In this document: positions 4,540 through 64,000 of the stretch, one piece after another
Position numbering within the stretch: the first letter of the stretch is position 1
How the letters are laid out: every line of letters begins with the position of its first letter
Assembly (NCBI GenBank): GCA_029547225.1
Contig: JAKPPS010000040.1
Location: forward strand, 42,796 to 106,795
Length of the DNA stretch: 64,000 bases
Reading direction: 5' to 3'
DNA from: a bacterium
GTDB taxonomy: Bacteria > Patescibacteriota > Dojkabacteria > SC72 > WJKH01
Notes under the pieces: generated by a model
What the model was told of the DNA's origin: nothing
The model's database searches: none
What the model saw: the letters and a program-made list of their open reading frames with translations, nothing else
Position numbers and translations under genes: made by a program

Positions 4540-5298
4540 CTATTCTTTTACTTCATATCCATGAACTACTGCATTGTATTTGAATTTTCTGAAATCAATT
4601 ATCTCGATTTCCTGATAATCCCAAACAGAAATATTTTCTGCATTTTTCTGAATTTTTTCTGAGACATATGGTATTGTCATTTTATATAAAGCGGTCGATG
4701 TCTGTCTTGTCGGAGTATAACCATCACGAAGTGATTGACCAATATATCGAGGACTTACTGAGAAACATGAGTTTGAATGTAATCCTAACCAATGGTAGAA
4801 TTCTTCTTGAGATAAAAGATATTCTCCATAATAATGCCAATATCTATCAGTTTTAAGAAGATACCCATCCCAACGTACAATAAGTTTTAACAACTTTATT
4901 ATTGAATTTTTTAATTCCTCTTCATCAGTAATACCATCCAATATAGGATGGTAATTCATAGTCGGAAGATGCATCTCTTTACGTTTACCAGTAATTACTT
5001 TTGAGCAAAAAGATACTAATGTATTCGGGATAATGTTTTTATAATCCTCAACGATTTCATTAACGACTTTTCGATAATTTGTTAGAACTTCATATCTAGG
5101 TATTTCTATCATTGGTCGTTTATATTGTATTAACCCACTGTCTAATGTGCGTAATTGATCGGTATTTAATGTGTTTTTTTGCCTCCAATTAAAATTTGCT
5201 GGATGAACAATCAGATTTATTGCAGAAATTTTTTTGAGGTTTTCTACAAGAATCGGAATCACATCCAATACTTCGAGTTTCTTTTCATTATTTGCCAT
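4540..5298 (-). CDS. Hypothetical protein (no recognisable family)
   Basis: 252-aa soluble protein, Trp/Tyr/His-rich in its C-terminal half (WDGYLLKTDRYWHYYGEYLL). It lies in the tRNA-modification neighbourhood between serS and the SpoU methyltransferase. I can place no motif. Confidence 0.35.
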   Translation of the reverse strand: MANNEKKLEVLDVIPILVENLKKISAINLIVHPANFNWRQKNTLNTDQLRTLDSGLIQYKRPMIEIPRYEVLTNYRKVVNEIVEDYKNIIPNTLVSFCSKVITGKRKEMHLPTMNYHPILDGITDEEELKNSIIKLLKLIVRWDGYLLKTDRYWHYYGEYLLSQEEFYHWLGLHSNSCFSVSPRYIGQSLRDGYTPTRQTSTALYKMTIPYVSEKIQKNAENISVWDYQEIEIIDFRKFKYNAVVHGYEVKE

Positions 5299-9791: not shown

Positions 9792-11756
9792 TTAATTCCT
9801 ATCGATATTGATAAAAGTAAAACCTGTTTGAGGTATAGATAAATAGCCTGGAGCTCTTAGATTGTATGTATTTTTAAATTCACTACCAGGCACACTAATT
9901 ACTCCAATATTTGTATTAAAGCTTATGTACTGAGTCTGTGCGTTATCCCCTTGAACATTGTAAGGCATACCAGAAATAGAAGTTATCGGATTCACAAGCA
10001 AATCTCTCATTTCTTGCATAGAATATGGATTGCCACCCAAACCTTGTATAGGACATTGAGATATAGTGACAGGCATAATACGGCTACTATCATAACCACC
10101 TTTCAAACCAGACCCTTTTAATACTAACCAAGTATTTAAAATATCTGCCATTTCTTCTTCACTCATCCAAGAATTTCGTCCACAAGTTGCAGAAGCATCA
10201 TTATATGTTTGTCTATACCATGATCGATAAAACCACGGATGACCTGACATACTTTCCCAAGATCTACTCAACCAATCTCCACTCCCAGTACGATCAGTTG
10301 TATCCCAGCCGACATTATTGACATAACCACCATGTATAGCAGCATATTGTGTGGAAATAGTATTACCATTTGCATCTTGTAATACCCACCCTCTAGTTTC
10401 ATCTACAGCTTGCTTCCAAGCACCCGACTTAAGTGGATAACTAAAAACTTGACAAGCTTGTGTAGCACATATCGCTCCAGCACCATTACTCGTCCTACGG
10501 ATAGCATATGTCCTTGCAATTATTGCTTGCGCTTTTAATGCTTCATAACCCCAGTTCTCTGGCATTTCTTGAATACCATAAAGATAGTCCGTTTCAAAAG
10601 GTATAGGATCAGCATAACCAATTACAGATATTGTTGCCATAGATGGATAGTCTTTGCGCAAAACTGAACCCGGATAATACGCTTGCAAAATCTCCTCTGC
10701 ACTTTGACCAGCTTCAGCTCTGGCATAAGCACCAGTTTGACTCATACCATTACGATGAGTATAGGCACCGATTGAAAATACTCCGAAGTATCCTGAAGGA
10801 GCATTATCCCTAAAACCAGCTAATGTCGCATTATAATCTCCAGTATTTGGCACTGAACCCTCATTAACGATTGTTCCACCTGATCTCGCAACAATAATAG
10901 CTCTTTGTAATTCAGATATTTGATCGCTAAGAGAAGATATTTCTGAAGAAAGCTGGTATTGTTGTGCATATGTTTGATTCATCTGTTCAATAAGCATAGC
11001 CCTCTCAGCTTCAAATGCTCTTTTGGAATCATCTAATGCTTGCTTTTCAGCTTCAATTTGAATTCGAGAATTCTCAATATCCTTTTTTTGCTTCTCTATT
11101 TCTGCAACTTGTTCATTTAGTTCTTTTCCTAAAGCAATCTGATTTTTTAAGGCATATCTTTTGTAGTTTAGTAAACTCCAAGTATCATCTGTGTTCCATT
11201 TCATTAACAATATCTCCATAATACCCATCCGTGAATTCTTGTAGATCTCAGTTGATACATCAGCAATCAGAAGCAGCTTTTCCTCCAAGATACTCTTCTG
11301 TTCCTCAAGCTGAGCTTCTTTTTCTTGCAATAATCTAGTATTCTCTTCTAGTTTTGCATTACTCTGACCCAATTTATCATCTATCATCCATATTTTCTGA
11401 TCTAATGAGACATTACTTGCAGTTATATCCTGTAAAGATTTTCTTGTCTCTGCAAGGATTCGCTCTTTCTCTTGTTTTATTCGTTCTGCTTCTTCAAGCT
11501 GTTGTTCATATTCTTCAGCAGTTGTAGCATACGCTTTTCGTATAAATTGATCAGATATCTGCTTAGGAATTATTAATCCACTAGGGATAGAGAATATCAC
11601 TGTAGTTAAAATAACAAACATAAATGAAACCGAAAAGTACCTCAAATATGACATTTTCTTTTGTATACTGTGGGTTTTATTATTTTGTTTTATCTGGATT
11701 TCTCCCATCTTCTGATTATAACATATTTTGTTAAAAAATATTAACGGACAAGGCAT
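9792..11756 (-). CDS. Membrane-anchored coiled-coil protein with C-terminal SpoIID/LytB-like domain
   Basis: N-terminal TM 'FSVSFMFVILTTVIFSIP'. About 250 aa of heptad-like E/K/Q-rich sequence follows. C-terminal 'DYLYGIQEMPENWGYEALKAQAIIARTYAIRR' matches the SpoIID/LytB signature ('EALKAQAVAARTYA'). The true start is probably internal (MSYLRYF or MGEIQ). Confidence 0.6.
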   Translation of the reverse strand: MPCPLIFFNKICYNQKMGEIQIKQNNKTHSIQKKMSYLRYFSVSFMFVILTTVIFSIPSGLIIPKQISDQFIRKAYATTAEEYEQQLEEAERIKQEKERILAETRKSLQDITASNVSLDQKIWMIDDKLGQSNAKLEENTRLLQEKEAQLEEQKSILEEKLLLIADVSTEIYKNSRMGIMEILLMKWNTDDTWSLLNYKRYALKNQIALGKELNEQVAEIEKQKKDIENSRIQIEAEKQALDDSKRAFEAERAMLIEQMNQTYAQQYQLSSEISSLSDQISELQRAIIVARSGGTIVNEGSVPNTGDYNATLAGFRDNAPSGYFGVFSIGAYTHRNGMSQTGAYARAEAGQSAEEILQAYYPGSVLRKDYPSMATISVIGYADPIPFETDYLYGIQEMPENWGYEALKAQAIIARTYAIRRTSNGAGAICATQACQVFSYPLKSGAWKQAVDETRGWVLQDANGNTISTQYAAIHGGYVNNVGWDTTDRTGSGDWLSRSWESMSGHPWFYRSWYRQTYNDASATCGRNSWMSEEEMADILNTWLVLKGSGLKGGYDSSRIMPVTISQCPIQGLGGNPYSMQEMRDLLVNPITSISGMPYNVQGDNAQTQYISFNTNIGVISVPGSEFKNTYNLRAPGYLSIPQTGFTFINIDRN

Positions 11757-11934: not shown

Positions 11935-12294
11935 TTACTTAAGAATAAAATCCATAACCAAGCTAAAGATTATCCTTACCATAACAATAAAAAACAACCC
12001 TATTACGGTCCAAGTAATAGTTGAAGATGCTTTTTTAACTTTTTCAGGATCTCCTGCAGAAGATATCCACATGTATCCAGAAAAAATCAACAGTGCAAGA
12101 GCAATAAAAACCGATACAGGTATTAATAAAGATTCTATTTTTGAAATTAATGTAGCAAGAAATGCTCCACTTAACTGTGGAGGATCCTGTACCCCACTAT
12201 TCGCATTAACAGGATTAACGGATATTAAAAATACCTGAAGAACAGATAAAATAAATATTATTATTTTTGAAACATAAGCCTTCAATGTATTCAA
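11935..12294 (-). CDS. TrbC/VirB2-like pilin family protein (paralog 4 of 4)
   Basis: Signal/anchor 'IIIFILSVLQVFLISVNPVNA'. Two C-terminal hydrophobic helices flank 'SSAGDPEKVKKASSTITWTVIGLFFIVMV'. Same architecture as the three upstream paralogs. Confidence 0.5.
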   Translation of the reverse strand: MNTLKAYVSKIIIFILSVLQVFLISVNPVNANSGVQDPPQLSGAFLATLISKIESLLIPVSVFIALALLIFSGYMWISSAGDPEKVKKASSTITWTVIGLFFIVMVRIIFSLVMDFILK

Positions 12295-12307
12295 TTTCCT
12301 TTATTCT

Positions 12308-12676
12308 TTAAATACCAACGATATTTTTAATAACAAAATTGACAATAAGAATTGAGAAGAAACATATTACTAGACCGATAATAGCATAGGTAATACCCTT
12401 TGTTGCACCTTTAATTTTATCCTCATCACCATTTGCCGTAATATATCGAATACCGTTCCATATTAACATTACTACCGCAACTAATGCAGTCAATCCAATA
12501 CCCCAATTAAGGAGATCAATTATAATTACCTGTAAGTCACCCTCAGCACGAGGTCCCTTAACTTTGTTTACCCATGTCTCCCATGTCTCCTGAGCTGAAA
12601 CAGCCATAGTTGAAGAGGCTAAAACAACGGCTGAAGTACTTAATTTTGCGTATAACGACACTAATTTATTTTTCAT
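12308..12676 (-). CDS. TrbC/VirB2-like pilin family protein (paralog 3 of 4)
   Basis: Signal peptide 'LSTSAVVLASSTMAVSAQ', then two C-terminal helices around the conserved block 'ITANGDEDKIKGATKGITYAIIGLVICFFSILIV'. Confidence 0.55.
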   Translation of the reverse strand: MKNKLVSLYAKLSTSAVVLASSTMAVSAQETWETWVNKVKGPRAEGDLQVIIIDLLNWGIGLTALVAVVMLIWNGIRYITANGDEDKIKGATKGITYAIIGLVICFFSILIVNFVIKNIVGI

Positions 12677-12751
12677 TTTTTAATTATTAAAAATTAATAT
12701 AATTTATAATTACTTATTTTACACTAAAAAAACTATAATTTCAATATTATT

Positions 12752-13087
12752 TTAAGCTAAAATTTTTCCCATAATAAATCTAATGATTAGTTGTGATAAA
12801 AAAATAATCACTAAACCAATTATCGCATTAACAATCGTACCTGTACCTTTTTTAATTTTGTCCGCATCACCATTAGCAGTAATATATGTAACGCCTCCCC
12901 AAACAATAAAGGCTAAAGCAACTACTGAAGAGATCACTACTGCCGTAGATAAAAATGAAGCAACCTTAGCCAATATTACATCACCGGAACCCGTCTCAGA
13001 TTGAAGAGAGGATACAACTGGATTATTGACACCAAACCAACCTACTAGACAAGTCGAATATTTAATTGTACTTATTATATTTATCAT
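12752..13087 (-). CDS. TrbC/VirB2-like pilin family protein (paralog 2 of 4)
   Basis: Block 'ITANGDADKIKKGTGTIVNAIIGLVIIFLSQLII' is near-identical to paralog 3. Its start overlaps the upstream paralog by 4 nt. Confidence 0.55.
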   Translation of the reverse strand: MINIISTIKYSTCLVGWFGVNNPVVSSLQSETGSGDVILAKVASFLSTAVVISSVVALAFIVWGGVTYITANGDADKIKKGTGTIVNAIIGLVIIFLSQLIIRFIMGKILA

Positions 13088-13524
13088 GATGATGGATTAT
13101 TAGGATCAAATTGAATATTTAGACCAAGGACTTTATTTATAATAACCAATATTACAATAGAAAGCATGATAATTGCAAATCCAGTAATAGCATTAGTTAT
13201 TATTTCTTTAGATTCCTTAAGCTTATCTGGATCTCCTTTACTCAACATAATCGTAATACCTGCATACACCAGTAAGATTATCGCACATAATACTCCCGCG
13301 GGTATAGCAATAACTATTAACTTGTTTACAAATTCAGTTATTACATCTGTCGGTTGACCACCTTGAGTTGTTGTAGTAGTAGTCGTATTAATAAAATCGT
13401 CCACAGTATCTCCAAAACTAGGCCCGAAAGCATCACTATCTCCATTAGCGATCAGGAAAATAAAAGGAATCTGTATGATTTTTGCAAAAATTAATGATAA
13501 GTTCATAAATACAATATTATACAC
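13084..13524 (-). CDS. TrbC/VirB2-like pilin family protein (paralog 1 of 4) with poly-Thr linker
   Basis: N-terminal hydrophobic segment, 'TTTTTTQGGQ' linker, C-terminal 'LSKGDPDKLKESKEIITNAITGFAIIMLSIVILVII'. Its start codon shares nt 13524 with the helicase stop. Confidence 0.45.
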   Translation of the reverse strand: MYNIVFMNLSLIFAKIIQIPFIFLIANGDSDAFGPSFGDTVDDFINTTTTTTTQGGQPTDVITEFVNKLIVIAIPAGVLCAIILLVYAGITIMLSKGDPDKLKESKEIITNAITGFAIIMLSIVILVIINKVLGLNIQFDPNNPSS

Positions 13525-16500
13525 TATAAATACGCATCATCACAAATAGATAAATAATCGCAATATTTACACATAAAACCAGGCCTAGCAATAAAGTTCT
13601 CTGCCAATATTTCATTTTTAACTTCAGCTATTAAGCTAAGTAATTTTGCTTTTATTTTCTCATCAATTTCGACATCTAATATCTCACTACCATCTAGATA
13701 AATTATTTTAGCCTTTTGAACTATCAAATTTTGACTTTCTTCTAGAACTAAAGCATAAAGTGCAAGTTGAAGTTGATAGTCTGAATCTTTATCTTCTTTT
13801 TTTTCACCCGTTTTGTAATCGATAACCGTTACAACATTTTTACCGTCTTCCTCGCCTACTTTATCAATACGGTCAATTGCACCGGTAAATGCTAAATCCA
13901 AAATATTATAGGAGAATTTTCGTTCAAGGTCTATGGGATACTCGTCAACAGAATAAAGTTTCTCAAAGTATTGTTTAATTGTATTTTTAGCTCTGTTTAA
14001 CTGTAATTCTTTTTGCTCAACTGAATCGTATCCGATATCTGACCAATTGGCGTCAAGACATTTCTCGAGAAATTCAAAGTCTGGCTGCTGAACTATACCT
14101 GGCAATGATTCTTTATATTGTTTTTGCTTCTCATAAAAGGACTTTAGAGTATTATGTATCACCCTTCCATAAGTCTGACTAGCACTGGGTTCACCTGGAA
14201 CAAGCTGTAAATATTTATATCGATACTGTTTAGGACATTTTCTATATTGGTTAAATGAGGTGAAGCTTAAAGATAATTTTTTCCTTTGATATGTTACCAG
14301 GAATTTTACCATCTCATCTTCGATAACATTTGACGAGAATGATTTTTCAATCGTGTTAATATTATTGTTTATTGTGCCATTAATTTCATTATCTATCACA
14401 TCTGTTTCCTCTTTATTTTGAGAATATTCTTTATCAAGATCGACTTTGCGATTCAGAAGTTCTTCAATAAAGATACTCGGCTGTTTCTTCCTTACTCCAC
14501 CATAATTTTCGGCTGCTGTAAGATACAACTTCTCTTTTGCTCTTGTAGCACCGACATAAAAAAGGCGTCTTTCTTCTTGCAAATGAGCCATCTTTTCATC
14601 TTTTTCTCCAAGTACTTCCTTGATTAATTCCTCAGGGATAGGTAAACGATCTGACATATACCTTGAAGGGAATCTTTCGGAAGAAAGATTGACAAGAAAA
14701 ACAACAGGAAATTCTAATCCTTTAGAAGAATGAACTGTCATAATATTTACAGCATTTAGATCATCCATTGATTCCTGTTCGACTGAAGGACTCTCACCAA
14801 TCTCAATGCTGTAATTTAAATAATCAATATAGTCATAAAGATTTGTATCTTTACTATCTTGTTCAAACTTCTTAATCGTATCAAAATATTTGCTAATATT
14901 CTGAATTTTAAAAACATCTTCTTGATTAGATGAATTGGCTAGCTGTGACATATACCCACTCTGTTTAAAGAAATTTAAGAGAATATTTCCAATCGATCTA
15001 TTCTCTTTAACCATCTTTAATGAATAATCAAAAATCTGTAGAAAATTTGATAAACTTGCAATTGCTTCTTTTGAAAAAGTAATATCCCTTTGATTCTTTG
15101 GATTTCCTTGATTAACGTCTGTAAAATTATCTTCACCCAATTTTATACCCCACTGAGCTTCAAGCCAGTTAATAATATTTATCTTATCTCTGCGAGAACC
15201 TTGCATGATTTCCGCAACTTCACGCCCTGATAATTTCCAACAATCCATCACGAGTAAGTTATAAGCATCAACATTTTTATTAAAGTCATTTAGTAATTTC
15301 AAAAATGAAATTAGCACTCCTACTTCTGGACGATTATATAGTCCTCTCGGTCCGACAAATTTGAAAGGAATACCTTTGTATTTAAATGCCTGGACAAACT
15401 CATCAATATGCTTATTAGCACGCACTAATACTGCAATATCAGAAAAATTATAATTGGAATTATTACTCACTGTACTATTTGTATCTACAAAAGATGATTG
15501 TCCCTCATCGTTAAATTTCCCTATTAAAACGGAATTATCACTATTACCTGTAAGCTTCAATATCTCTTCAGACACTAATTCTGCTTCATGCACACCTGTA
15601 TCAGTAGCGATAAGATTCACAGGTTCTTCAATTATTTTATCTGTAGCTTTATTAGCAATGAGCTTCTTGTTTATATTTTCAGTTATTTCAAGGCGATGTG
15701 GATTATTATTTGAGATTAATGAGTAAGCAGAATCTAAAATTTTCTGCTCGTTACGGTAATTCCTTGTAAGAACGATATTTGTAGCAGAAGGATATATTTT
15801 CTTAAATTGAAGAATATTTGAGATTGCTGCACCTCGAAACTTATATATTGCTTGATCATCATCTCCAACAACTGTAATATTGGATTTTTTTGATGCTTGA
15901 GTAATTTTCTTCTGTATTTCTGGAGAGCATTTTCCAGTCCCTGCAATTTCAATATACTTGGGATCAACATTTATTGCTAAGGTATTTATAAGCACATTTT
16001 GAGTAAAATTTGTGTCTTGAAACTCATCAACTAAAATATACTTATATTGTTGACGATATTTTTGGAGTGTAATAGGACTTTCGCGAAGTAATTTTAGTGC
16101 GAGATTAATAACATCTCCAAAATCTAGTTTAGACTCATCTATTTTCAACTGACTATAAACTTTATATGTTTCTGACAACTCTTTGAGTCTTTCATAGTGC
16201 TCTTTCTCTTCTTGAGTGTCTTGCTTAAGTTTTGTTACATAATCAATATAATCATCTGGACGAATATCTTCATCTTGCAAGCGACTAAAGTGTTTTAATA
16301 TCTCCGTAATATATGACGATGGATTTCCAATAGGTCTAAGCTTTTGCAGAGGAAACTTGTACAGATTCTTTCTAAAAAGCATATAAGCTTGAGCTTGAGT
16401 CATTAGCGTAAAATTAATATCTAGACCTATATTCAGTGCCTCTTGCCTAAGTAATTTCTCGCAAAAGGAATGAAAAGTTGAGATATTCACTTCTTCATAA

Positions 16501-16733
16501 CCCAATGGCATCGCAGTATCAACACGATCAAGCATTTCTTTTGAAGCTTTATCAGTAAAAGTAAGTGCTAAGATTTCTGATGGTTTAGCCCATCCTTGCT
16601 CGATAATATTAATAATTCGAGTTGTGATTACTTTTGTTTTTCCAGTACCTGCTCCGGCAATAATAAGTAATGGCCCTTGATTATGATTTACGGCTTCAAT
16701 TTGTTCATCATTTAGTTTTTGTGTTAATTCCAT
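13524..16733 (-). CDS. UvrD/PcrA-like SF1 helicase fused to C-terminal PD-(D/E)xK (RecB/Cas4-like) nuclease with Cys cluster
   Basis: Walker A 'IIAGAGTGKTKVIT', 'LTFTDKASKEM', 'ILVDEFQDTNFTQ', 'VGDDDQAIYKFRGA', 'VHSSKGLEFPVVFL', 'YVGATRAKEKLYLT'. C-terminus 'CPKQYRYKYL ... IDRIDKV..VIDYKTGEK ... QLQLALYALVL ... CKYCDYLSIC' is a RecB/Cas4-type nuclease with a 4-Cys (likely Fe-S) motif. Confidence 0.85.
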   Translation of the reverse strand: MELTQKLNDEQIEAVNHNQGPLLIIAGAGTGKTKVITTRIINIIEQGWAKPSEILALTFTDKASKEMLDRVDTAMPLGYEEVNISTFHSFCEKLLRQEALNIGLDINFTLMTQAQAYMLFRKNLYKFPLQKLRPIGNPSSYITEILKHFSRLQDEDIRPDDYIDYVTKLKQDTQEEKEHYERLKELSETYKVYSQLKIDESKLDFGDVINLALKLLRESPITLQKYRQQYKYILVDEFQDTNFTQNVLINTLAINVDPKYIEIAGTGKCSPEIQKKITQASKKSNITVVGDDDQAIYKFRGAAISNILQFKKIYPSATNIVLTRNYRNEQKILDSAYSLISNNNPHRLEITENINKKLIANKATDKIIEEPVNLIATDTGVHEAELVSEEILKLTGNSDNSVLIGKFNDEGQSSFVDTNSTVSNNSNYNFSDIAVLVRANKHIDEFVQAFKYKGIPFKFVGPRGLYNRPEVGVLISFLKLLNDFNKNVDAYNLLVMDCWKLSGREVAEIMQGSRRDKINIINWLEAQWGIKLGEDNFTDVNQGNPKNQRDITFSKEAIASLSNFLQIFDYSLKMVKENRSIGNILLNFFKQSGYMSQLANSSNQEDVFKIQNISKYFDTIKKFEQDSKDTNLYDYIDYLNYSIEIGESPSVEQESMDDLNAVNIMTVHSSKGLEFPVVFLVNLSSERFPSRYMSDRLPIPEELIKEVLGEKDEKMAHLQEERRLFYVGATRAKEKLYLTAAENYGGVRKKQPSIFIEELLNRKVDLDKEYSQNKEETDVIDNEINGTINNNINTIEKSFSSNVIEDEMVKFLVTYQRKKLSLSFTSFNQYRKCPKQYRYKYLQLVPGEPSASQTYGRVIHNTLKSFYEKQKQYKESLPGIVQQPDFEFLEKCLDANWSDIGYDSVEQKELQLNRAKNTIKQYFEKLYSVDEYPIDLERKFSYNILDLAFTGAIDRIDKVGEEDGKNVVTVIDYKTGEKKEDKDSDYQLQLALYALVLEESQNLIVQKAKIIYLDGSEILDVEIDEKIKAKLLSLIAEVKNEILAENFIARPGFMCKYCDYLSICDDAYL

Positions 16734-53580: not shown

Positions 53581-54600
53581 TTATTTCAAACTTTTTCTAT
53601 TTACTTTTTTTAAATTTTTTTCTAAAGATTTAATACTTTCAAGATATGCTTTCTCTACAGGTGACAGTGTTTTTACCTGATACTTTTTGTATTCACTTTC
53701 TGCCTTTTTCAATGCCTGATCATGACTTATACTCCCTGCAGTAAGCAATTTACCTTTGCCATATATTCCTACAAATTTTTCAAGCTCACTTAACCAATCT
53801 CTCATGCTCATCCTTTGTTGCTCTATTGCTTTCAACTCAGCTAAATCGAAAAATGCCGACACAAGTCGATTTAGCCTTTGCAGCTCATCAGAACTTAAGT
53901 AATTCTTAGCAACTTCAATCTCTTTTTTTATTGGAATTGGGCCAGAGAAAGTCGTTAATCCCATAAACTCTTTTTCTGCATCCGCTCTAGAATATATCAG
54001 TTCTGGAGCTGTTTGTTTATTAACTGCATAATGAAGTTTTTTCTGAACAGTCGCAAAGAATTTTCTCGACTCTTTACTATTTGGATCATAATCAACACTT
54101 GTTGCATAGAGATCAAGCACCTGTCTGTACAACACTTTTTCACTACTGCGGATATCACGAATTCTATCCAGTAACTCTTTCCAGTAATTCCCGCCTGCAT
54201 TTCCTTTCAACTTTTCATCATCTATTGTAAATCCTTTGATGATATACTCTGTTAACCTTTGTGTTGCCCACTTACGAAATTCTGTACCCCTAAGTGATTT
54301 TACTCTGTAACCAACTGATATTATTACGTCGAGGTTGTAGTATTCAAGATCACGAGTGACATCCCTACTACCTTCTTTTTGAACTTGGCGGAAATTCCGC
54401 CTGGTTGAATTTACTTCAAGTTCAGATTCTTTATATATATTTTGAATATGCTCACCAATAGTTCTTCGAGCTTTATCAAAGAGTAATGCCATCTGTTCTT
54501 GAGTCAACCAAACAGTTTCGTCTTCTAAAATTACATCAATAGTAATTTTTTCATCACTTGTTCTAAACAGTATGATCTCTGAATTGCTATTTTTATCCAT
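53581..54600 (-). CDS. rhuM: RhuM-family protein (virulence/defence-island associated)
   Basis: N-terminal 'EIILFRTSDEKITIDVILEDETVWLTQEQMALLFDKARRTIGEHIQNIYKESEL' matches the conserved RhuM start. It is flanked by roughly 430-bp non-coding regions on both sides. Confidence 0.65.
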   Translation of the reverse strand: MDKNSNSEIILFRTSDEKITIDVILEDETVWLTQEQMALLFDKARRTIGEHIQNIYKESELEVNSTRRNFRQVQKEGSRDVTRDLEYYNLDVIISVGYRVKSLRGTEFRKWATQRLTEYIIKGFTIDDEKLKGNAGGNYWKELLDRIRDIRSSEKVLYRQVLDLYATSVDYDPNSKESRKFFATVQKKLHYAVNKQTAPELIYSRADAEKEFMGLTTFSGPIPIKKEIEVAKNYLSSDELQRLNRLVSAFFDLAELKAIEQQRMSMRDWLSELEKFVGIYGKGKLLTAGSISHDQALKKAESEYKKYQVKTLSPVEKAYLESIKSLEKNLKKVNRKSLK

Positions 54601-56485: not shown

Positions 56486-57931
56486 CTATTTCTTGCCGAA
56501 GAAATCTATTGCAACCCGTAATTCTGGATGAGTTTTCGAATACTCCTCTATTGATACTTTTTGTTGCCATGCTTCACATGCTTGTACCAAAGCTTTTGCT
56601 CCGCTTCGAGTACCCTGTGGATGACTATGAACTCCAGCCCCCATTGTTGTTATAAAGTCAACATCCTGCATAGCATCTATAAATGGTGCGAGCAAAACCG
56701 GATTTAAACCTCCTGAGATTATTGGACATGTTTTCTTCATTTTTCTCCAATCCTGAATAAAGTGCTTTGATCTTACTGAATCGAGAAGATGGTAATTAAC
56801 TTTGTTTTGAGCTTTTTTCTCTTTTTCGATCCAATCCTTATCGATGAAACGATTTACAAAAAGTTCACGACTCACATCATCATCCTTCTCATTTACTTTA
56901 TACCAACTTTGCTCAAAAAAATGTCCGTCACTTTCAATATCAAGTGCCAATTTCGCAGCAACAATATCTTCACCTACAGATCCAGACATTTTACCTATGC
57001 CTGCTGTTCCAGTATGGATACCAGATGCGCCAGCTAATCGAGCTAGTTTTGTCAAAACAGGAACTGTCATACCGAATGGATTTTCAAGCCTTGTAAATGC
57101 ACCATGTCCTGCTCTATGAAAATGTAAAAATACTTCTGGGTATCTTCTACGAATTGTTTGAACAGCTGTCCAGCCAGCAGTTATGCCATCGACCAAAAAA
57201 GCATAACTTCCCGGTTTCATCGTTTTCTTAACTAACTCAGCTCTCTCAATCATTTGATCGAAATCTGCCGCAGAAACATTAAAAGAATGAACCTTTGTCT
57301 GTCCAGTTACTTTTTCTGCTTCATCCATAGCTTGTCTTACATACTTGACCATAGATTCATAATCGCAGAAATCCTGATTTGCTTGAGGTTCATCATTCTT
57401 CACAAAAGCACCTCCACCCGACCAAAAGTCAAAGCATACTTCAGCATACTCAGATGATGTTAATCCAATTTTTGGTTTAATAATAGTACCTAAAATTGGG
57501 ATATCATATAAATCCAAATATTGACGCATATTATCGATAGTGTATGAAGGACCGTCATATTGATCTAGCATAGAAGATGGAAACCAAACATCAAGAAGTT
57601 TACATGCTGAAAGATTCCCCATACCCAAAATATTTCCATTGATGTAGGTTATGATGTTTTGTACATTTCCTCCTCTATCAAATATTCTCCAAGGGAATGC
57701 AATCCATACTAGTTTTTTCTCTCGATCAATATTATAAACTATTGCATTTAATGAGTCAGAGAATCTTGTAGATGTACCAATATTTATATTTGATCCTGTA
57801 GAAGATTCTGCAGCTATCTCAGATGCGGCATCAAGCAGCTCATCACGATAAGTATCTACATGAAAGACAGCCAACATATATTGGTCATTAAATACTTCAT
57901 TTGTACCGAGTTTGATATATTTAGTTTGCAT
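56486..57931 (-). CDS. rbcL: Ribulose-1,5-bisphosphate carboxylase/oxygenase large subunit, archaeal-type (form III or II/III)
   Basis: 'AAESSTG', 'IIKPKIGLTSSEYAEVCFDFWSGGGAFVKNDE' (KPK plus carbamyl-Lys KxDE), 'HFHRAGHGAFTR', 'GIHTGTAGIGKMSGS', 'ISGGLNPV...TTMGAGVHSHPQG', 'SIEEYSKTHPELRVAIDFFG'. It aligns along its length with T. kodakarensis RbcL except for one roughly 40-aa insert. There is no small subunit gene nearby. Confidence 0.88.
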   Translation of the reverse strand: MQTKYIKLGTNEVFNDQYMLAVFHVDTYRDELLDAASEIAAESSTGSNINIGTSTRFSDSLNAIVYNIDREKKLVWIAFPWRIFDRGGNVQNIITYINGNILGMGNLSACKLLDVWFPSSMLDQYDGPSYTIDNMRQYLDLYDIPILGTIIKPKIGLTSSEYAEVCFDFWSGGGAFVKNDEPQANQDFCDYESMVKYVRQAMDEAEKVTGQTKVHSFNVSAADFDQMIERAELVKKTMKPGSYAFLVDGITAGWTAVQTIRRRYPEVFLHFHRAGHGAFTRLENPFGMTVPVLTKLARLAGASGIHTGTAGIGKMSGSVGEDIVAAKLALDIESDGHFFEQSWYKVNEKDDDVSRELFVNRFIDKDWIEKEKKAQNKVNYHLLDSVRSKHFIQDWRKMKKTCPIISGGLNPVLLAPFIDAMQDVDFITTMGAGVHSHPQGTRSGAKALVQACEAWQQKVSIEEYSKTHPELRVAIDFFGKK

Positions 57932-62269: not shown

Positions 62270-62510
62270 TTACAGTTAAGTGCTTACAAATTATCATTTA
62301 TTTGTAATAGTTTTTGATGATCTTCCCAATAACATCCAGCACAGAACTACCACATAAATTGAACACACAAAAGTACTCTTTGTATTTTGCCCATCAATAA
62401 GATATTTGTTAGCGTTTTTGCAATAGCTTATATTACCAACATAAACAGATATTTTCGCCGATAATAAGGGATAACTTGACATTTTACTCACTTAAATATA
62501 CATTATTCTA

Positions 62511-64000
62511 ATGGAACCAAAGCGCCCCGATTTGCTATACAAATCTATTATTGTCGTTTTGTGTTTATTGTCAATTGGTTTTTCGATTTATTTATATATA
62601 ACACTTCGTAAAATCAGTCCAATAATACAAGCTTCAAGAAGTTCAATACAAGATACTCTTTCTTCAATACAAATTCAGGATAGCTCTGGCAATTACACAA
62701 TTATTTCTCCCAAGGTCGTAATAAATGATATTGTTTCTGCACTTAAAAATGATCCTGCCTTTATTAATTCAATAGCTGGTTTACAAGGTGAGAAGGGTGA
62801 GAAGGGCGACACAGGAGAAACAGGCGCGACAGGTGCACAGGGATTGCAAGGCATACAAGGAGAAAAAGGCCAAGACGGATCCTCTACAGGTATACCAGGT
62901 CCTGCTGGTGCAGATGGTCTTGATGGAGTTGATGGATCGGATGGACTCAGTGCTTACGATATTGCCGTTGCTGAAGGCTATTCGGGTACTGTTGCTGAAT
63001 GGTTAGCTTCATTAATCGGACCACAAGGACCTGCAGGCGCTGATGGTATAAATGGAACTAATGGTCTTGATGGAATAGATGGATCGGATGGACTCAGTGC
63101 TTACGATATTGCCGTTGCTGAAGGCTATTCGGGTACTGTTGCTGAATGGTTAGCTTCATTAATCGGACCACAAGGACCTCAGGGGCTACAAGGTTTGCAG
63201 GGATTACAGGGAATTCAGGGAGAAGTTGGTCCTCAAGGGATTCAAGGTGAAACCGGACTACAAGGGCCCGCAGGTGCTGATGGTATTAACGGAGTTGATG
63301 GGTCAGATGGTCTTAGTGCATATGAAGTGGCTGTCGCACAGGGATATTCGGGTACTGTTGCTGAATGGTTAGCTTCATTGATAGGTCCACAAGGACCTCA
63401 GGGGCTACAAGGATTACAGGGAATTCAGGGAGAAGTTGGTCCTCAAGGCATACAGGGTGAAACAGGTGCTACTGGCCCTCAAGGACCACAGGGCGAACAG
63501 GGTTTACAAGGATTACAAGGAATACAGGGTGAAACCGGACTACAAGGGCCCGCAGGTGCTGATGGTATTAACGGAGTTGATGGGTCAGATGGTCTTAGTG
63601 CATATGAAGTGGCTGTCGCACAGGGATATTCGGGTACTGTTACTGACTGGTTAGCTTCGTTAATCGGTCCACAAGGACCTCAGGGAGAGCAAGGATTACA
63701 AGGAATACAGGGTGAAACTGGTGCTACCGGTCCAGCAGGTGATCCACTTGGCGGGTTGACTGATCCGGGTGCCGATAGAATTATGTTTTGGGATGAAAGC
63801 GCGAATGCTCCAGTCTGGTTATCATTAGGAGGTAATCTTGCAATAACAGAGACAACTTTAGATGCAATAATACCTGCCGATAGTTATGTTACTGGAGTTG
63901 CTTTTACCGGTACAAGCACAAAAACTTTAACAGTAACAAGAAGTAACAGCTTACCAGATCTGACTGCAACATTTGATGATATTGGTTTTGCAAATCCAAT
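62511..64000 (+). CDS. Membrane-anchored collagen-like (Gly-X-Y) repeat protein with phage-tail-fibre-type 'GSDGLSAY(D/E)(I/V)AVA(E/Q)GYSGTV(A/T)(E/D)WLASLIGPQGP' interruptions; 3' end beyond the window
   Basis: I translated it by hand from the ATG at 62511 (frame 0). The frame stays open to the window end, and it is absent from the ORF track because no stop lies inside the window. N-terminal TM 'SIIVVLCLLSIGFSIYLYI', then 'GLQGEKGEKGDTGETGATGAQGLQGIQGEKGQDG...' and four collagen/interruption modules, then a non-collagenous C-terminal region ('..LTDPGADRIMFWDES..'). Confidence 0.8.
   Translation, partial: MEPKRPDLLYKSIIVVLCLLSIGFSIYLYITLRKISPIIQASRSSIQDTLSSIQIQDSSGNYTIISPKVVINDIVSALKNDPAFINSIAGLQGEKGEKGDTGETGATGAQGLQGIQGEKGQDGSSTGIPGPAGADGLDGVDGSDGLSAYDIAVAEGYSGTVAEWLASLIGPQGPAGADGINGTNGLDGIDGSDGLSAYDIAVAEGYSGTVAEWLASLIGPQGPQGLQGLQGLQGIQGEVGPQGIQGETGLQGPAGADGINGVDGSDGLSAYEVAVAQGYSGTVAEWLASLIGPQGPQGLQGLQGIQGEVGPQGIQGETGATGPQGPQGEQGLQGLQGIQGETGLQGPAGADGINGVDGSDGLSAYEVAVAQGYSGTVTDWLASLIGPQGPQGEQGLQGIQGETGATGPAGDPLGGLTDPGADRIMFWDESANAPVWLSLGGNLAITETTLDAIIPADSYVTGVAFTGTSTKTLTVTRSNSLPDLTATFDDIGFANP
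62916..63683 (+). repeat. Nested near-perfect tandem DNA repeats inside the collagen-like gene (modules of ~147 bp, ~219 bp and ~282 bp)
   Basis: 62916-63032 is nearly identical to 63063-63179, with a 147-bp period. The block starting at 63177 ('cctcaggggctacaagg...') recurs at 63396. 63246-63360 recurs at 63528-63643. I compared these by eye. Confidence 0.8.

Follow-up and report, generated by a model that had tools for sequence, protein, structure and literature searches.

In a 64,000-nucleotide (nt) stretch of a Dojkabacteria genome (phylum Patescibacteriota; contig JAKPPS010000040.1, positions 42,796 to 106,795; hereafter the window), four consecutive genes, P1 to P4, probably encode an ordered set of VirB2-like pilins belonging to a Patescibacterial type IV secretion system (T4SS), transcribed from promoters of their own, with a gene for a SpoIID-domain protein after them and a helicase–nuclease gene before them as a conserved neighbour in this lineage. 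The evidence consists of family assignments, orthology, synteny and conserved motifs. An earlier note on this DNA had described four consecutive same-strand open reading frames (ORFs) of 146, 111, 122 and 119 amino acids (aa), and we confirmed them on the minus strand. The genes and sites on which the argument turns are listed in the direction of transcription.

13524–16733, minus strand: helicase–nuclease, a UvrD/PcrA-type superfamily 1 (SF1) motor with a C-terminal PD-(D/E)XK nuclease carrying four cysteines (Cas4/AddB type); 1069 aa, single chain
13516–13545, minus strand: promoter-like site of the pilin array; TTGTGA at 13545–13540, 18 nt, TATAAT at 13521–13516, 9 nt to the ATG at 13506
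13084–13506, minus strand: P1, first-position pilin; 140 aa from the ATG at 13506 (the mechanical ORF from the GTG at 13524 has 146 aa)
12752–13087, minus strand: P2, second-position pilin; 111 aa
12716–12744, minus strand: promoter-like site in the P2–P3 gap; TTGAAA, 17 nt, TAAAAT at 12721–12716, about 39 nt 5′ of the P3 ATG
12308–12676, minus strand: P3, third-position pilin; 122 aa
11935–12294, minus strand: P4, last-position pilin; 119 aa, TTG start with AAGGA just 5′
9792–11708 (ORF 9792–11756), minus strand: SpoIID-domain envelope protein; 638 aa from the ATG at 11708

All four pilins exceeded the gathering cut-off of the Pfam family T4SS_pilin (PF18895, 26.6 bits), P1 scoring 33.5 bits, P2 40.6, P4 37.7 and P3, at the top of the four, 50.5. 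The check proposed in the earlier note, a hidden Markov model (HMM) search with PF04956 (TrbC, cut-off 27.9 bits), turned out negative for the window proteins themselves: P4 (19.4 bits) and P3 (14.0 bits) stayed below threshold, and P1 and P2 had no match in the Pfam scan of the window proteins. Positional orthologues of P4 scored above this cut-off in three related loci (L090 p4, 32.6 bits; L085 p5, 29.9 bits; L084 p5, 29.0 bits), with matches spanning almost the whole profile. The TrbC/VirB2-like identity that had been proposed is thus upheld by PF18895 for all four proteins and by PF04956 for the P4 orthologues, and by these profile matches P4 is the most TrbC/VirB2-like of the set. P1–P4 are also mutually homologous (27–40% identity; E values between 1e-10 and 6e-21 in BLASTP), and the region that precedes helix 1 is variable. 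The NCBI record names P3 'pilin [Candidatus Dojkabacteria bacterium]'. As a point of annotation, the ENA gene call of L001 (14496–14663, 14440–14799) lacks the TTG-start fourth pilin and has a 55-aa opposite-strand ORF instead, and the NCBI gene call includes it.

Towards the C-terminus of P1–P4, Kyte–Doolittle profiles showed two hydrophobic helices with a short polar loop between them, and an AlphaFold 2 model of P3 predicted a helical hairpin with helices at residues 48–80 and 85–118 (predicted local distance difference test score, pLDDT, >90). The conserved block, which had been described as preceding the two helices, is in fact the polar loop between them together with the start of helix 2. 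Its proposed motif, ITANGD[E/A]DKIK, is restricted to P2 and P3 and absent from P1 and P4; what all four proteins share is [ST/A]xGDx[DE]K[ILV]K. An N-terminal signal had likewise been ascribed to each pilin. Judged by eye, P3 (lysine-rich n-region, AVSA↓QE) and P4 (VNA↓NS) both fit a signal peptide and P1 is ambiguous, with xHA↓D in its orthologues, while P2 and all of its orthologues lack a hydrophobic N-terminus. A W[FY]G motif is conserved in the P2 type.

For comparison we used the window and seven loci in which an orthologous helicase gene is followed by pilins (L003, L084, L085, L087, L089, L090 and L172). Best-hit analysis matched the pilins of each relative to P1, P2, P3 and P4 of the window in the same order, P1 and the first pilin of each relative being reciprocal best matches. 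Array size among relatives ranges from 4 to 6 copies, the extra copies always being P3-like (L084 p4, L089 p4, L090 p5 and L172 p2–p5). Conservation peaks at the third position, where the hairpin has a mean pairwise identity of 69% among orthologues, compared with 43–52% at the other positions and 29–47% among the window paralogues. We infer from these alignments that the four pilin types are older than the genomes that carry them and are not interchangeable. Because each position corresponds to an old orthogroup, P1, P2 and P4 would be non-redundant. P3 is the probable major subunit, since it has its own promoter-like site and leader and the highest conservation, and since a terminator-like element follows it in relatives.

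The end of P1 and the start of P2 share 4 nt (ATGA at 13087–13084), an overlap that the earlier note had stated, and in relatives the corresponding gap is −4 nt (L087), −11 nt (L172) or 0–18 nt (the others). The P2–P3 gap is 75 nt in the window and 53–106 nt in every related locus, where a TATAAT box lies 16–51 nt (mostly about 35–50 nt) 5′ of the P3 ATG. Judging from its hexamers, the site in the P2–P3 gap is a putative promoter. In five relatives a GC-rich hairpin followed by a T-run, resembling a terminator, comes right after the P3-type pilin (L084 10373–10430, L085 10370–10426, L087 10370–10438, L089 10361–10440 and L090 10355–10447), and in L084, L085, L089 and L090 there is an extra P3-like gene after the hairpin (in L090, after the P4-type p4). 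The 13-nt P3–P4 gap of the window (12295–12307) has neither the hairpin nor the P3-like 90-aa gene of relatives, a state that looks like a deletion. A terminator-like hairpin at 12182–12165, inside the P4 coding sequence, was disregarded, as one was found against 1.6 expected from shuffles.

Alternatively, the array could be a collection of variants able to replace one another, with no distinct structural roles, that serves antigenic or host-range variation; this has been proposed for the VirB2 paralogues of Bartonella and Anaplasma and put forward for Patescibacteria (PMC12102498). The low identity of the paralogues, the variable region before helix 1, the change in copy number from 4 to 6 among relatives and the P3-like nature of all extra copies are what such a collection might look like. 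We nevertheless regard this as unlikely, because each window gene has a positional orthologue in every relative, in the same order and at deep divergence, and because the P2 type differs in topology, with no signal peptide in any genome. Four types that pre-date these genomes and have been retained point to distinct roles.

The start of the array bears on how it is expressed. According to the earlier note, the first pilin's start shares nt 13524 with the stop of the helicase–nuclease gene and the two are very likely co-translated. This 1-nt overlap exists only if P1 starts at a GTG that is the first possible start after the upstream stop; in both public gene calls P1 begins at the ATG at 13506, which makes it 140 aa long and leaves 17 nt between it and the helicase gene, and the 140-aa form scores slightly higher against PF18895 (34.6 bits, vs 33.5 for the 146-aa form). 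The junction reads TAG-TG-TATAAT-attgtattt-ATG, with the GTG abutting the conserved TATAAT box just upstream. A consensus scan placed the putative −35 element TTGTGA inside the 3′ end of the helicase coding sequence and the −10 box just past the helicase stop. In 8/8 loci the interval from the helicase stop to the first pilin contains a perfect TATAAT, which is 7–15 nt 5′ of the ATG in seven of the eight, and the gap between the two genes is 18–86 nt in relatives. The window, L084, L085 and L087 share the sequence TAGTGTATAAT exactly; in L003, L089, L090 and L172 the box is embedded in otherwise unrelated sequence.

At the frequency of TATAAT in the window (0.9 per kb per strand), the chance of such a box is estimated at about 1% per locus, so chance does not explain the pattern. 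It is also not simply how genes start in this genome: only 3/49 window genes (those for P1, the SpoIID-domain protein and the RhuM-family protein) have TATAAT 3–15 nt 5′ of the start, and that explanation was ruled out. An extended −10 element for the P1 promoter was dropped, as TAGTGTATAAT is not TGnTATAAT and the scan flagged no TG. These sequence patterns make a separate promoter for the pilins most likely, with its −10 box just 3′ of the helicase stop, and P1 most likely starts at the ATG at 13506. The P1 mRNA would be leaderless or nearly so, and the putative GTG start at 13524 would precede the first nucleotide of the transcript. Translational coupling of the helicase gene to P1 is therefore not supported, since the GTG would precede the transcript and the gene callers use the ATG. 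The earlier note had named separate transcription of the helicase gene and the pilins as evidence against co-translation, and the conserved TATAAT between the helicase stop and the ATG is evidence of that kind. The case shows that a 'first start codon' rule for ORFs can produce an apparent translational coupling.

The gene upstream of the array is the UvrD-helicase/Cas4-like-nuclease fusion that the earlier note had recognized, with UvrD-helicase (229 bits), UvrD_C (163 bits), PDDEXK_1 (119 bits) and Cas_Cas4 (44 bits) all above cut-off on one ORF. In the suggested check with Cas4/RecB nuclease models, the nuclease domain scored 66.6 bits against NCBIfam TIGR00372 (cas4; cut-off 65), but it is fused to a helicase, and no other window ORF matched a Cas family in the Pfam scans. 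Its closest solved chains are PcrA, UvrD, AdnB and AddA. In five aligned Dojkabacteria orthologues the motor motifs (Walker A AGAGTGKT, DE[FY]QD and [IV]DR[IV]D) and the nuclease motifs ([IM]DYKTG and QLxxY) are conserved, the window protein having AGAGTGKT, DEFQD, IDRID, IDYKTG and QLQLALY. The four nuclease cysteines are kept in 4/5 of these, L087 lacking the last. Scores far below the NCBIfam equivalog cut-offs (pcrA 400 vs 911, addA 169 vs 708 and recB 155 vs 696 bits) mean that by these criteria the protein is not pcrA, addA or recB; uvrD was not reached at the equivalog level either, and pcrA was the best equivalog match. The enzyme shares with AdnAB, AddAB, RecBCD and PcrA an SF1 UvrD-type motor with all motifs, joined to a C-terminal nuclease of the RecB family, and with the iron–sulphur nucleases of AddB and Cas4 a cysteine pattern of one N-terminal Cys plus CxxCx5C. 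It differs from AdnAB, AddAB and RecBCD in being a single chain with no partner subunit gene adjacent. The upstream gene most likely encodes an AddA/AdnB-like helicase–nuclease for DNA-end processing. Contig DAOODH010000006.1 (GCA_035424305.1) and ENA contigs encode an identical protein, and the organism is present in at least 8 public assemblies.

The order helicase–nuclease, 4–6 pilins, 0–2 small genes and SpoIID is found in the window, L084, L085, L087, L089, L090 and L172; L003 likewise has the helicase gene and then pilins, its contig ending after two of them. The helicases of relatives are 41–48% identical to that of the window. Helicase–pilin adjacency thus occurs in eight independent Dojkabacteria-type loci, with flanks that change on both sides. 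Upstream of the helicase gene, three relatives carry a gene for an apurinic/apyrimidinic (AP) endonuclease, and in L089 and L090 the helicase gene lies between the pilins and a divergent core of PrgI, TraC-like and VirB4 genes, which adjoins the array. The SpoIID-domain protein follows the pilins in 7/7 loci that extend far enough. In most relatives a conserved block comes 3′ of SpoIID, encoding a 205–210-aa protein (weak bPH_2 match), DUF5657 (83–87 aa), a protein of about 770 aa with no Pfam match and, usually, SmpB; it is absent from the window, and the window and L090 have RelA after SpoIID in its place. The proteins of this block are probably uncharacterised T4SS membrane components. After it, L084, L085, L087 and L172 encode a VirD4-like ATPase of about 840 aa. 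In L084 this protein passes PF02534, PF10412 and PF12696, and the precomputed Pfam record of the homologous 847-aa gene of L087 has DUF8128 and a faint DUF87 only; in L084, L085 and L172 the coupling protein gene is about 6 kb from the array, which lies upstream of it. The coordinates of the downstream genes in relatives are as follows.

L084 11054–12937, L085 11050–12942, L087 10785–12581: SpoIID genes
L089 11792–13858, L090 12621–14456, L172 5026–6873: SpoIID genes
L084 12979–19828, L089 13951–17244, L172 6919–13449: block 3′ of SpoIID

Outside this group the picture differs. The helicase–nuclease family has 579–587 relatives per scan, and among the best 159 non-Dojkabacteria loci, which include Microgenomatia, other lineages of the candidate phyla radiation (CPR) and Omnitrophota (helicase identity 32–40%), HMM scans found a pilin within 7–8 kb of the helicase–nuclease gene in 0/159; all two-helix ORFs of the GTDB loci L003–L082 were also checked visually. 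Metagenome contigs yielded 80 loci, which belonged to other lineages or were truncated by the end of the contig; none had pilins, and they serve as a negative control. The wide occurrence of the family away from pilins and the AP endonuclease gene upstream of it in three relatives favour a general enzyme. Conversely, L091 and L174, from two other CPR lineages, have pilin arrays divergent from TrbL_3, PrgI and TraC-like genes and no helicase; VirB4 lies beyond the TraC-like gene in L091, and the L174 locus ends inside that gene. L175, another Dojkabacteria metagenome-assembled genome (MAG), has the VirB4 core alone, with neither helicase nor pilins within 10 kb. A non-Dojkabacteria CPR locus, L120 (2336–9796), has the helicase–nuclease divergently adjacent to PrgI-like, TraC-like and VirB4 genes, with yidC, jag and dnaN nearby on the contig, DnaG and RpoD downstream and no pilins, and is a second lineage with this enzyme beside a T4SS core. 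The VirB4 search gave >7000 matches, and one VirB4 candidate for the MAG of the window, P0156 ('MAG TPA Dojkabacteria'), was rejected because it belongs to another assembly, GCA_002335495.1.

Two further features of the other-lineage loci were recorded. In 37 of them (L005–L157) a PcrA-like helicase of about 750–770 aa by match span, with no nuclease domain, lies convergently on the opposite strand 2–5 kb downstream, so that the helicase–nuclease is not the sole UvrD-family helicase in those genomes. In many Microgenomatia-type loci (L004–L035 and others) an ORF of about 110–120 aa with three transmembrane (TM) segments (…RRG…LGVGNILNLILIVAI…ELYF) is found about 1.5–2.5 kb upstream of the helicase–nuclease gene, on the opposite strand.

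The constancy of the upstream gene admits a second alternative, that the helicase–nuclease, the pilin array and SpoIID form one DNA-handling module, in which a relaxase-less T4SS would import or export DNA where the cell meets its host and the UvrD–Cas4-like enzyme would unwind that DNA and degrade or resect it, for nucleotide salvage or recombination. Adjacency in eight loci with helicases so diverged and with both flanks changing, the position of the helicase gene between VirB4 core and pilins in L089 and L090, and its divergent arrangement with PrgI, TraC-like and VirB4 genes in L120 all favour it, as do the intact catalytic motifs and the VirD4-like coupling protein in relatives' neighbourhoods. 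DNA or nucleotide uptake has also been proposed for the essential Patescibacterial T4SS (PMC11665869), and recG, radA and comF occur near T4SS genes in the class ABY1 (PMC12102498), recG being 4 kb downstream in the window. On the other side, none of the 159 other-lineage helicase–nuclease loci has a nearby pilin, the CPR arrays of L091 and L174 lie directly beside the T4SS core and have no helicase, the conserved promoter appears to belong to the pilins, and synteny shared by members of a single class can come from common descent. A promoter that reaches back into the helicase 3′ end moreover provides a neutral reason for the two genes to stay linked, explaining the linkage with no shared function. 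A module of this kind therefore seems improbable. The more specific proposal that the Dojkabacteria T4SS recruited a dedicated UvrD–Cas4-like helicase–nuclease, with host DNA imported through the pilus or channel and then unwound, degraded or resected, is quite improbable, because the family is widespread with no pilins, other arrays have no helicase and the pilins would be separately promoted.

Several results nonetheless count against reading P1–P4 as a separately transcribed pilin set of a T4SS. The promoter evidence consists of conserved hexamers, from which activity is deduced, and since a terminator scan found none between the helicase gene and P1, read-through co-transcription may occur. 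The helicase–pilin junction survived rearrangements on both sides in the eight loci and is tighter than the linkage of pilins to VirB4; its survival could reflect selection for co-expression. The Pfam scans, which covered the 49 window ORFs taken as genes and an ORF running off the window end, found no VirB4, VirB6, VirD4 or relaxase. Searches by tblastn with the T4SS proteins of relatives found none in the 64-kb window either, and the two methods agree with the earlier note on the absence of VirB4, VirB6 and VirD4. Fold searches with the P3 model returned generic helical hairpins only, with no VirB2 or TraA among the top matches listed.

That P1–P4 are small two-helix membrane proteins unrelated to a secretion pilus, matched by HMMs through their hydrophobic composition, is very improbable: this would fit the lack of T4SS genes in the window, the non-specific structure searches, a profile search against PDB sequences that gave no match and the weak matches to unrelated membrane families that accompany the pilin matches in the Pfam scan, but 4/4 ORFs exceed a curated cut-off in PF18895, orthologues exceed that of PF04956 over almost the whole profile, the conserved GDx[DE]K loop is not hydrophobic, and in relatives the array lies beside VirB4, PrgI, TraC-like or coupling protein genes.

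If P1–P4 are T4SS pilins, as we consider probable, they would insert into the membrane as helical hairpins with the basic GDx[DE]KxK loop facing the cytoplasm, and a Sec signal peptide would be removed from P3, P4 and probably P1. A VirB4-type ATPase, assumed to be encoded elsewhere in the genome, would extract the subunits and polymerise them into a surface filament or conduit for host interaction, with P3 as the major subunit and P1, P2 and P4 as minor or specialised ones. The SpoIID-like enzyme could plausibly make an opening for this structure in the peptidoglycan. The protein carries a TM segment at its N-terminus and, judged by eye, a coiled coil, scores 58 bits against PF08486, and in Dojkabacteria-type loci is about 600–690 aa long, usually with a TATAAT 5–9 nt 5′ of the ATG. 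In the window, TGTTATAAT at 11723–11715, six nt 5′ of the ATG, forms an extended −10 site carrying TGn. VirB1 is missing from most pilin-bearing Patescibacteria genomes (PMC12102498), and the SpoIID-type enzyme may be a peptidoglycan-opening, VirB1-like partner.

Pilin arrays were already said in the earlier note to be known from Patescibacteria, and the literature bears this out. A search of 3035 Patescibacteria genomes with PF18895 and PF04956 found 441 VirB2 arrays of 2–11 genes (Quinonero-Coronel et al. 2025, PMC12102498), whose paralogues are on average 25% and at most 54% identical (PMC12102498). A series of pilin genes is part of the T4SS cluster SEML1_0006–0019 of Southlakia epibionticum ML1 and is essential there (Wang et al. 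2023, PMC10633639). The Patescibacterial T4SS is described as the only monoderm T4SS with potential pili (2025 review, PMC12857230); its role has been called 'completely unknown', with nucleotide or DNA uptake as one proposed candidate (PMC11665869). The window array resembles the published ones in its four tandem PF18895 genes, its paralogue identities of 27–40%, its monoderm CPR host and the lack of a relaxase. It differs in not lying beside virB4, in the bracketing of the Dojkabacteria array by the helicase–nuclease and the SpoIID-domain protein, neither of which appears in the main text of PMC12102498, and in the positional orthogroups of four genes described here. Given 441 published arrays and an existing 'pilin' annotation, the window array is a member of a described class.

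Compared with TrbC of RP4 and VirB2 of Agrobacterium, the window pilins share two hydrophobic helices around a short charged loop and, as judged by eye for P3 and P4, a putative signal peptide; they differ in scoring below the PF04956 threshold, in the lack of a signal peptide in P2 and in the monoderm host, and no gene for TraF/TrbF-type maturation or cyclisation was found in the window. P1–P4 also match about 70 residues of NF045849, the 'Mbov_0395 family pilin-like conjugal transfer protein' of a Mycoplasma integrative and conjugative element (ICE), with E values of 8e-5 to 2e-9. That family belongs to a T4SS of the mating-pair-formation type MPF-FATA, to which Patescibacterial VirB4 is related (PMC12102498). 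The window scores stay under its 40-bit cut-off (best, P4 at 36.8 bits), so that membership is not established, and the near-threshold matches suggest that some Tenericutes MPF-FATA systems may carry a VirB2-like protein. The matches are relevant to a published proposal of pilin co-option from diderm systems. The ComB system of Helicobacter pylori and the archaeal Ced and Ted systems, relaxase-less DNA importers related to T4SSs, have been cited as precedents for uptake (PMC11665869, PMC12102498); no ComB-specific or Ced-specific component was identified here.

Downstream of the array the window encodes the SpoIID-domain protein, RelA/SpoT and RecG, and upstream of the helicase gene there is a gene for a large M23 peptidase. 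Rfam and transfer RNA (tRNA) scans of the window gave no match. A region of about 30 kb (21677–53149) is rich in glycosyltransferases (GT2 and GT4) and contains two ABC-2/Wzt-type exporter pairs, a UDP-GlcNAc 2-epimerase, a GDP-mannose dehydratase, an epimerase and a methyltransferase, forming a surface-polysaccharide island that is large for a small genome. Collagen triple-helix repeats in the last ORF account for a jump in GC content to 41% in the last 2 kb. Other features of the window were as follows.

4540–5298, minus strand: archaeo-eukaryotic primase (AEP)-like primase-domain protein
53581–54600, minus strand: RhuM-family protein, TATAAT 7 nt 5′ of the ATG
56486–57931, minus strand: RuBisCO large-subunit homologue (Pfam RuBisCO_large)
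62502–64000, plus strand: collagen triple-helix repeat ORF running off the window end (PF01391, 125 bits)

Both this kind of array and the 'pilin' annotation are already public, and the locus adds no new kind of system. What goes beyond published descriptions is the helicase–nuclease/SpoIID bracket, the ordered orthogroups, the conserved promoter-like sequence at the junction and, in two relatives, the placement of the helicase gene with the VirB4 core on one side and the pilins on the other. The sorting of the pilins into four old orthogroups in a fixed order, one of them the probable major subunit, favours a structural division of labour over simple antigenic variation, and a SpoIID-type cell-wall enzyme is a constant downstream partner in a phylum whose pilin-bearing genomes mostly lack VirB1. 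The equally constant helicase–nuclease upstream may be either a by-product of where the pilin promoter lies or a clue to DNA handling by a T4SS that is essential in the one organism tested. If the recruitment of a dedicated helicase–nuclease were true, it would provide the first genomic handle on the essential function of the Patescibacterial T4SS, as a machine for importing DNA or nucleotides.

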